Virus record (IMG/VR): IMGVR_UViG_2740892231_000011
Coordinates: 1-56,969 of that record
Origin: a virus
Lineage: Duplodnaviria; Heunggongvirae; Uroviricota; Caudoviricetes
DNA length: 56,969 bases
Strand: one strand, 5' to 3'
Shown here: piece by piece, positions 50,033 to 50,323 of the stretch
Layout: each line of letters opens with the position of its first letter
How positions within the stretch are numbered: position 1 is the first letter of the stretch
Notes under the pieces: model-generated
Database searches by the model: none
What the model was told of the DNA's origin: nothing
What the model saw: the letters and a program-made list of their open reading frames with translations, nothing else
Program-made: the position numbers and the translations under genes

Positions 50033-50323
50033 TGTTGTCCCAGTTGTCCCGCTACGTATTAATTGATTGATTTTACTAAAAATACAATAAAAAAGTGGGA
50101 CAACATTACAGCATTTTGGGACGACATCGGGGTATTTTGGGACGACATAGCGACATTTTGGGACGACACAACGAGCGTTAATTACCCTGGCTGGTGACTG
50201 GGACAACATAAAACCCCTCATGTTGTCCCAAAATCGGCTAATGTTGTCCCAGTTTTCGGAGTGTATTTTTAATTAAATCAATGGATTATGTGTAAGTGGG
50301 ACAACTGGGACAACTGGGACGAC
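50033..50323. repeat. iteron cluster (putative origin / replication-protein binding sites)
   Basis: At least 11 copies of TGGGAC(A/G)AC in both orientations, including 3 tandem ATTTTGGGACGACA units and a GTGGGACAACTGGGACAACTGGGACGAC run. Confidence 0.65.

Follow-up and report, generated by a model that had tools for sequence, protein, structure and literature searches.

What is the role of a dense cluster of short repeats that fills the space behind a large replication gene in Escherichia coli? The cluster lies in a 56,969-bp stretch of E. coli chromosome (hereafter the window, the whole of the DNA that was analysed), and a sequence-only reading had noticed copies of TGGGAC(A/G)AC crowded in both orientations into about 290 bp and had proposed an origin with initiator binding sites. 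Searching both strands of the window, we found 11 exact matches to TGGGACRAC, all inside 50034-50323, together with a twelfth copy, CGGGACAAC (50043-50051, minus strand), which carries one mismatch and abuts copy 1; elsewhere in the 57-kb window, one-mismatch matches occur only at chance level. The count also withstands the shuffling check that had been suggested for it: across 100 dinucleotide-preserving shuffles of the window the motif occurs 0.72 times on average and 3 times at most, with 11 or more copies in 0 of 100, which places the observed number ~15-fold above chance and confined to 290 bp. Judging from sequence comparisons across related elements, we consider the cluster to be very probably the vegetative replication origin of a Gram-negative PICI-type phage satellite or island, with iterons bound by the Rep protein encoded directly upstream. 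The relevant features are the following, in window coordinates:

41409-42680: P4-type integrase, just after a 31-bp ssrA repeat (41255-41285)
47578-47838, plus strand: DUF4222 gene, directly upstream of rep and part of the conserved replication block
47870-50008, plus strand: rep, encoding the 712-aa initiator helicase (stop codon 50006-50008)
50034-50323, no strand assigned: candidate origin (ori) as a whole, 12 iterons in two six-iteron modules, roughly palindromic
50034-50051, minus strand: iterons 1-2 (starts 50034, 50043), tandem with 9-bp spacing, TGGGACAAC and CGGGACAAC
50052-50095, no strand assigned: AT-rich spacer 1, candidate DNA-unwinding element, AT 85-90% in 20-bp windows
50096-50167, plus strand: iterons 3-6 (starts 50096, 50117, 50138, 50159), direct, with an exact 21-bp spacing equal to two helical turns
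50199, plus strand: iteron 7, in the left arm of module 2 with iterons 8 and 9
50222 and 50243, minus strand: iterons 8 and 9, left arm of module 2 (iterons 7-9 together 50199-50251)
50252-50296, no strand assigned: AT-rich spacer 2, second candidate unwinding element
50297-50323, plus strand: iterons 10-12 (starts 50297, 50306, 50315), three head-to-tail copies with 9-bp spacing
50324-50368, plus strand: AT-rich tail and ribosome-binding site GAGAGGA, ahead of the next open reading frame at 50369
51111-51560, plus strand: single-stranded DNA-binding protein gene (ssb), downstream of the origin (Pfam SSB, TIGR00621)

The first iteron begins 25 bp past the rep stop codon, and the 12 iterons are split evenly between two modules. 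In each module the iterons diverge from an AT-rich spacer of ~45 bp, such that at both spacers minus-strand iterons stand on the left and plus-strand iterons on the right. The region as a whole is approximately palindromic, with inverted arms of 53 nt and 47 nt that are 79% complementary, and spacer 2 is reverse-complementary to spacer 1 within the inverted repeat I1 (53 nt, 79% complementary). Two finer patterns that had been picked out from the letters are both present as described: three evenly spaced ATTTTGGGACGACA units (50113-50126, 50134-50147 and 50155-50168) recur with a period of exactly 21 bp, and a tandem run, GTGGGACAACTGGGACAACTGGGACGAC, occupies 50296-50323, with its triple of iterons at 50297-50323. 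Iterons 3-6 correspond to the direct-repeat families D1 and D2. Two program-called open reading frames that lie over the repeats (49931-50221, minus strand, and 50063-50197, plus strand) are without RefSeq annotation and were ignored.

The gene directly upstream had been read as primase-like. Pfam detects no primase domain in its product and finds no match in residues 1-147; the protein is instead matched by DUF927 (E 1.3e-41), with its core at residues 158-436 and beyond and P-loop residues G355, K356 and T357, and the open reading frame is intact and full length. Comparison with solved structures returned the SaPI replication initiator, SaPIbov1 Rep (PDB 8TCH, E 1e-11), and Cch (5DGK, E 5e-4), NCBIfam gave a weak match to the SCCmec 'cassette chromosome replicative helicase', and the sole significant Foldseek match of the full-length AlphaFold model was again Cch (5DGK, E 1.7e-9). 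The full-length model is partly confident, with pLDDT below 50 for residues 346-500 (the ATPase core), a region too poor for any hexamer geometry to be read from it. A C-terminal winged-helix domain (approximately residues 584-712, nt 49619-50005) is assigned from a predicted structure of moderate confidence (pLDDT 70.5). On these profile and predicted-structure matches, Rep is a DUF927 helicase of the SaPIbov1 Rep/SCCmec Cch family.

Ahead of the helicase core lies an N-terminal domain of ~146-160 residues, without a Pfam match and with a confidently predicted alpha/beta fold. Residues 1-160 (47870-48350) share 42% identity (E 1e-28) with the N-terminal part of Pri-Rep from EcCICFT073 (L089 9242-9720), and this domain appears to be a shared PICI-specific module, the part labelled 'pri'. 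Longer relatives of Rep (~900 aa) carry Zn_Ribbon_Prim and Toprim_3 ahead of DUF927.

Origins of the SaPI type contain 6-12 iterons immediately downstream of rep, with an AT-rich centre and at least two iterons per side in opposite directions (PMC9371898), and SaPI Rep reads these iterons via a C-terminal winged helix and self-loads without ATP or accessory factors (PMC9371898, PMC7581432). The window shares with SaPIs the helicase initiator, its predicted C-terminal winged helix, an origin 3' of rep, an iteron number within 6-12 and an AT-rich region with at least two opposed iterons per side, the last found at both spacers. The two differ in that the host of the window element is Gram-negative, its iterons measure 9 bp compared with 5-6 bp in SaPIs, and it has two AT-rich spacers with six iterons each where SaPIs have one central AT-rich region; the N-terminal domain of SaPI Rep also differs from that of the window Rep, and identity over the aligned C-terminal domain is 9%. 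SCCmec Cch, the best structural match to the full-length model and a DUF927 member, offers a further comparison. Cch2 binds direct repeats downstream of its own gene (PMC7581432), but the SCCmec case differs from the window in that three iterons are described for Cch2 and no origin is defined for Cch, and in element type and host.

E. coli PICI origins are organised like SaPI origins (Fillol-Salom et al. 2018, PMC6092414), and a pri-rep-ori fragment of EcCICFT073 maintains a plasmid, with deletion of rep or the origin abolishing or reducing maintenance (PMC6092414). The genes of EcCICFT073 run int, HTH regulator, icd-like, DUF4222, pri-rep, ori, hypothetical, SSB, PerC and capsid c1499, and the window keeps the same order for icd-like, DUF4222, rep, ori, hypothetical, SSB and PerC; a unidirectional block of regulator, icd-like, DUF4222, pri/rep, ori, SSB and PerC is common in order to EcCICFT073, EcCI042 and ATCC 25922. 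In both EcCICFT073 and the window, ori lies directly 3' of rep, and in it an AT-rich spacer separates two tandem inverted iterons from the direct iterons that follow, whereas the working parts differ, with a D5_N/DUF5906/Pox_D5 helicase and GGTAGAYA iterons in the former and DUF927 and TGGGACRAC in the latter. The ssb genes of the two elements are 82% identical at the DNA level. Other published PICI alleles encode a 'DNA primase family' protein (RM13514) or RepA-family helicases (042 and 11128), with none of the DUF927 type among those we checked; DUF927 'primases' in Gram-negative PICIs have been mentioned collectively, with the origin downstream of pri (Mageeney et al. 2023, PMC10111431). 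The correct reference system is the PICI/SaPI pri-rep-ori module (PMC6092414, PMC9371898). Because SaPI and E. coli PICI origins have already been described, and the tested EcCICFT073 allele is of the D5_N type, the window holds a new instance of a described kind of origin, with a less studied Rep allele (DUF927), and the known picture of how such origins work is unchanged.

What changes is the family assignment, from P4-like to PICI/SaPI-like. The arrangement had been said to mirror that of P4 alpha and its origin, and as a functional analogy this stands: in both P4 and the window a multidomain initiator-helicase with a C-terminal DNA-binding domain goes with short repeats (octamers or nonamers), the initiator gene is followed immediately by one iteron block, and both elements are E. 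coli phage satellites with integrases of the P4-type family. As homology it fails. Rep has no detectable similarity to P4 alpha (BLASTP E = 2.1), whose domains (Zn ribbon, Toprim, D5_N SF3 helicase, DUF5906 and Pox_D5) differ from those of the window protein, and the block directly 3' of alpha is crr and not ori. It comprises ten type-1 repeats in two 120-bp units, with the P4 origin proper ~4.5 kb away, and P4 needs both of these separated loci. A comparison with the P4 ori/crr repeats, which had been suggested as a check, spoke against the match when we ran it: the P4 repeat is TGTTCAC(A/C) and that of the window TGGGACRAC, and P4's two loci contrast with one cluster here: neither the 57-kb window nor L001 has a second TGGGACRAC cluster, L001 being a 40-kb locus that spans the identical element, starting at its integrase and reaching remnants of type III secretion genes in the flank. 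P4 homology was thus rejected on the protein comparison, the domains, the repeat word and the single cluster; with one cluster and a Rep unrelated to alpha, the P4 analogy is functional only.

The position of crr in P4 nonetheless suggests another role for the cluster, that of an initiator-bound auxiliary element, needed in cis, while replication itself begins at another origin elsewhere in the element, and the two-module structure loosely resembles the two 120-bp crr repeats. We regard such a role as highly improbable because a second cluster is absent from the window and the L001 locus; in addition, many relatives carry one six-iteron module only, and Rep and alpha are unrelated. Iteron plasmids such as F, R6K and pPS10 use a non-helicase initiator (RepE, pi, RepA), DnaA boxes and loading of host DnaB/DnaC, unlike the window, where the initiator is the helicase itself and the origin holds no DnaA box. 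A classical iteron plasmid origin of the Rep_3/RepE/pi type was set aside on these two points and on the lack of a match in plasmid collections. DNA searches with the 551-bp region returned no match in phage or plasmid collections; the element is chromosomal and, at the DNA level, restricted to E. coli.

To compare the cluster among relatives, we aligned the window with three diverged E. coli islands (L002-L004), which match it at 76-78% identity across the repeats. Each of them retains all 12 iterons in position, including iterons 1-2, and 96 of 108 iteron columns are invariant compared with 127 of 243 in the rest of the intergenic region (Fisher p = 6e-12); within the iteron core GGGAC.AC, 83 of 84 columns are invariant in this alignment. 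The sequence of spacer 1 varies among relatives while the iterons flanking it are fixed.

Our wider locus set comprised 80 loci sampled from Enterobacterales at one genome for each species, together with three loci whose E. coli proteins have another C-terminal tail; in most of these loci a repeated word occurs in the 450 bp past the rep stop. Iteron counts in the 87 related Enterobacterales loci peak at 12 (35 loci) and 6 (22 loci), and clusters start a median of 25 bp past the rep stop (IQR 24-26); eight of the 87 have no cluster, some of these being truncated genes or contig ends. Forty-one related loci share the layout (median span, 285 bp), which follows the pattern '<9< ~55 >11>21>21> ~40 >22<21< ~53 >9>9>'; the window conforms to it apart from an insertion of 10 bp between iterons 3 and 4 (iterons 3-6 are spaced 11-21-21 in relatives). 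The '>9>9>' triplet of iterons 10-12 is conserved across iteron classes. Approximately 22 relatives (e.g., L029, L031, L033, L034, L037, L040, L054, L056 and L060) have the left module only, with three inverted and three direct iterons around one AT-rich spacer over ~111 bp; a single module of this kind thus seems to be enough, and the form with 12 iterons appears to be a duplicated version.

The layout is thus shared across loci whose iteron words differ, falling into 17 classes (e.g., TGAACCAAC, TGAGACAAC, TGGGATAAG, ATAACCCGT, TGAACCGAC and TGACACACT). Membership of the same class is predicted by identity over the last 45 Rep residues with an AUC of 0.96, and for the tail the observed value was reached in none of 2000 label permutations; identity over the helicase core gives an AUC of 0.78. 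These statistics ignore shared ancestry. Natural swaps hold independently of them. L002-L004 and L085-L087, for instance, have cores that are 93-97% identical and tails that are 22-27% identical, the former carrying TGGGACRAC and the latter ATAACCCGCA, and L039 (TGAACCAAC) and L043 (TGAGACAAC) have 98% identical cores. We predicted in advance that the E. coli proteins P0028 and P0033, whose tail is of another type, would go with another iteron; this was borne out, although the word guessed for this tail type, TAACCCA, was only approximately right (observed, ATAACCCGCA). A cognate pairing between Rep and iteron, as read from comparative covariation and natural tail swaps, is supported. The proposal of an origin with sites for the initiator encoded upstream thereby gains from relatives both a conserved position and layout of the iterons and a word that co-varies with the Rep winged-helix tail.

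Short phased repeats are also found in centromere-like sites and terminase-binding regions, and the cluster might on that account be a packaging (cos/pac) or partition site. The odds of this are close to negligible: no ParA/ParB or terminase gene adjoins the cluster, the iteron sequence co-varies with the C-terminal domain of a helicase, and the cos sites published for PICIs are different sequences, similar to lambda cosQ/cosN (PMC6092414 supplement).

A regulatory role deserves more weight, since plasmid iteron arrays often double as autoregulatory operators. The cluster is intergenic and just ahead of a co-oriented gene block, and iterons 10-12 border directly on an AT/TATA-rich stretch and a ribosome-binding site, as might be expected of an operator array (and not an origin) through which a transcription factor, be it a Rep autoregulator, PerC or an AlpA-like protein, controls ORF 50369, SSB, ProQ/FinO and PerC. 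A promoter scan, however, gave one chance-level site on the opposite strand, the 25-bp distance to the rep stop is kept while the downstream gene differs between loci, the iteron word tracks the winged-helix tail of Rep, and the combination of 12 sites and two AT-rich spacers agrees with the layout published for SaPI/PICI origins. Because the array is anchored to the rep stop and the Rep tail, and not to the variable downstream genes, we judge an operator very unlikely as its primary role; a secondary regulatory role may exist.

Other signals at the cluster are few. No DnaA box (at up to one mismatch) occurs in 47488-51760 and no GATC site inside the origin (50034-50323), a combination that fits a self-loading initiator. 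Perfect matches to the IHF consensus WATCAANNNNTTR are present in spacer 1 (50060-50072, minus strand) and, in mirrored orientation, in spacer 2 (50276-50288, plus strand). Across relatives the consensus appears in 14 of 129 spacers (1.2 expected), a proportion that makes it allele-specific and outside the conserved design; IHF sites were accordingly rejected as a general origin feature, and IHF may act in this particular origin allele, to go by the consensus matches. An RNA gene was rejected as well, an Rfam scan having given sub-threshold snoRNA noise only. The terminator scan predicted none between rep and the downstream genes, and read-through transcription may thus cross the origin.

Returning to the origin reading, a mechanism along SaPI lines can be proposed. 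The C-terminal winged helix of Rep would recognise TGGGAC(A/G)AC, a binding suggested by the covariation and by the SaPI paradigm, and Rep hexamers would assemble on both modules without a separate loader or DnaA. The 9-, 11- and 21-bp spacings would put the bound winged-helix domains in fixed helical register. The hexamers could then melt the DNA at the AT-rich spacers, be threaded onto the exposed single strands and unwind in both directions, while the element's own SSB would coat the strands and host or helper functions would prime and elongate.

That iteron counts favour 6 and 12 invites the speculation of one iteron per protomer. Extending this, each module might be a loading platform that docks all six winged-helix domains of one Rep hexamer, with two modules ~200 bp apart loading two hexamers at two melting sites, and at least 17 orthogonal Rep-iteron specificities might have evolved on this fixed scaffold by changes to the recognition helix and wing only; a wing-strand Arg/Trp difference, for example, may accompany GGGACAAC versus GGGATAAG. 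We offer this combined picture tentatively, as a possibility that leans toward doubtful. If true, orthogonal specificities would keep co-resident satellites from cross-talk and would amount to a ready-made set of orthogonal replicons. The rigid 6/12-iteron layout, with at least 17 words tracking the Rep tail, may in any case be of use in work on satellite replication, on incompatibility between co-resident satellites or on orthogonal replicon design.

We also considered the element in which the origin is embedded. The window opens with ssrA (tmRNA gene, 40-402), followed by defence genes, a prophage and a second integrase, and an exact 31-bp direct repeat of the ssrA 3' end (372-402 and 41255-41285) marks a tandem array at ssrA, with element 1 at ~0.4-41.3 kb and element 2 running from the integrase at 41409. 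Past this integrase and its cargo, 10 N at 46864-46873 stand beside an IS3-like end. None of the complete E. coli genomes spans this position, matches ending at 46863 and IS3 continuing there in others; the step from the integrase and defence cargo to the replication module is therefore a scaffold join and not continuous sequence. Beyond the gap the block reads Icd-like, small ORFs, DUF4222, rep, the repeats, two hypotheticals, SSB, ProQ/FinO, PerC and Q antiterminator, and its 46998-56952 part is 99.8% identical to the tRNA-Gly island of E. coli 2015C-3121. The L001 copy of the module likewise lies at tRNA-Gly, behind a different integrase and an HTH regulator.

These surroundings bear on whether the element still replicates, as the sequence could be an origin by type in an element that has decayed and no longer replicates in this genome. 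Consistent with such a relic are the scaffold gap and IS3 end between integrase/cargo and replication block; the absence of a match to an AlpA-family regulator among the window proteins scanned, including next to the integrase; the annotation of DUF4222 as frameshifted in the 100%-identical RefSeq copy (L001 17679-17974); and the lack of any recognised capsid, terS or rpp gene within the portion of the element that the window covers. Against it, rep is intact and full length, all 12 iterons are kept (11 exact, one with a single mismatch), and at least four further complete E. coli genomes carry the module at 99.8-100% identity. This last identity fits either recent spread or recent common descent. 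Taken together, we find a relic unlikely, though less so than the other alternatives.

Relatives help to place these observations. In the islands with 76-78% identity across the repeats there are genes for capsid, head decoration and small terminase; capsid and terS genes are found in L002, L003 and L086. The DUF4222 gene occupies the same position in EcCICFT073, EcCI042 and L002-L004, and its window ORF encodes 86 aa compared with 99-104 aa in relatives, where it overlaps the rep start. For annotation, a previously unannotated 360-bp intergenic region can now be labelled as a mobile-element origin, the element in question occurring in pathogenic E. coli (STEC lineages) with a cargo of anti-phage defence genes.

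The cargo by the integrase (43356-46674, minus strand) encodes a HATPase_c/HEF_HK protein and a Response_reg_2 protein, in a region of ~33% GC compared with ~50% elsewhere. Such pairs are characteristic of predicted systems for conflict or defence. On either side of the prophage there are more genes of defence type, namely AbiTii (571-1491), GmrSD (2325-4274), and an AAA_21 ATPase with RloB (39178-41129). In the Logan assembly of the E. coli locus L085, an integrase ORF is fused in frame to TerL domains (positions 1-494), a fusion that marks a 'helper-embedded PICI', one integrated into the terminase gene of a prophage, and the same island also carries capsid, protease and portal genes. Downstream of the window origin, ProQ/FinO-like, PerC-family and phage Q antiterminator genes occupy 51719-54492; PerC alleles on E. 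coli PICIs are reported to activate the LEE island (PMC6092414), and the Q antiterminator is unusual among the PICIs that we inspected.
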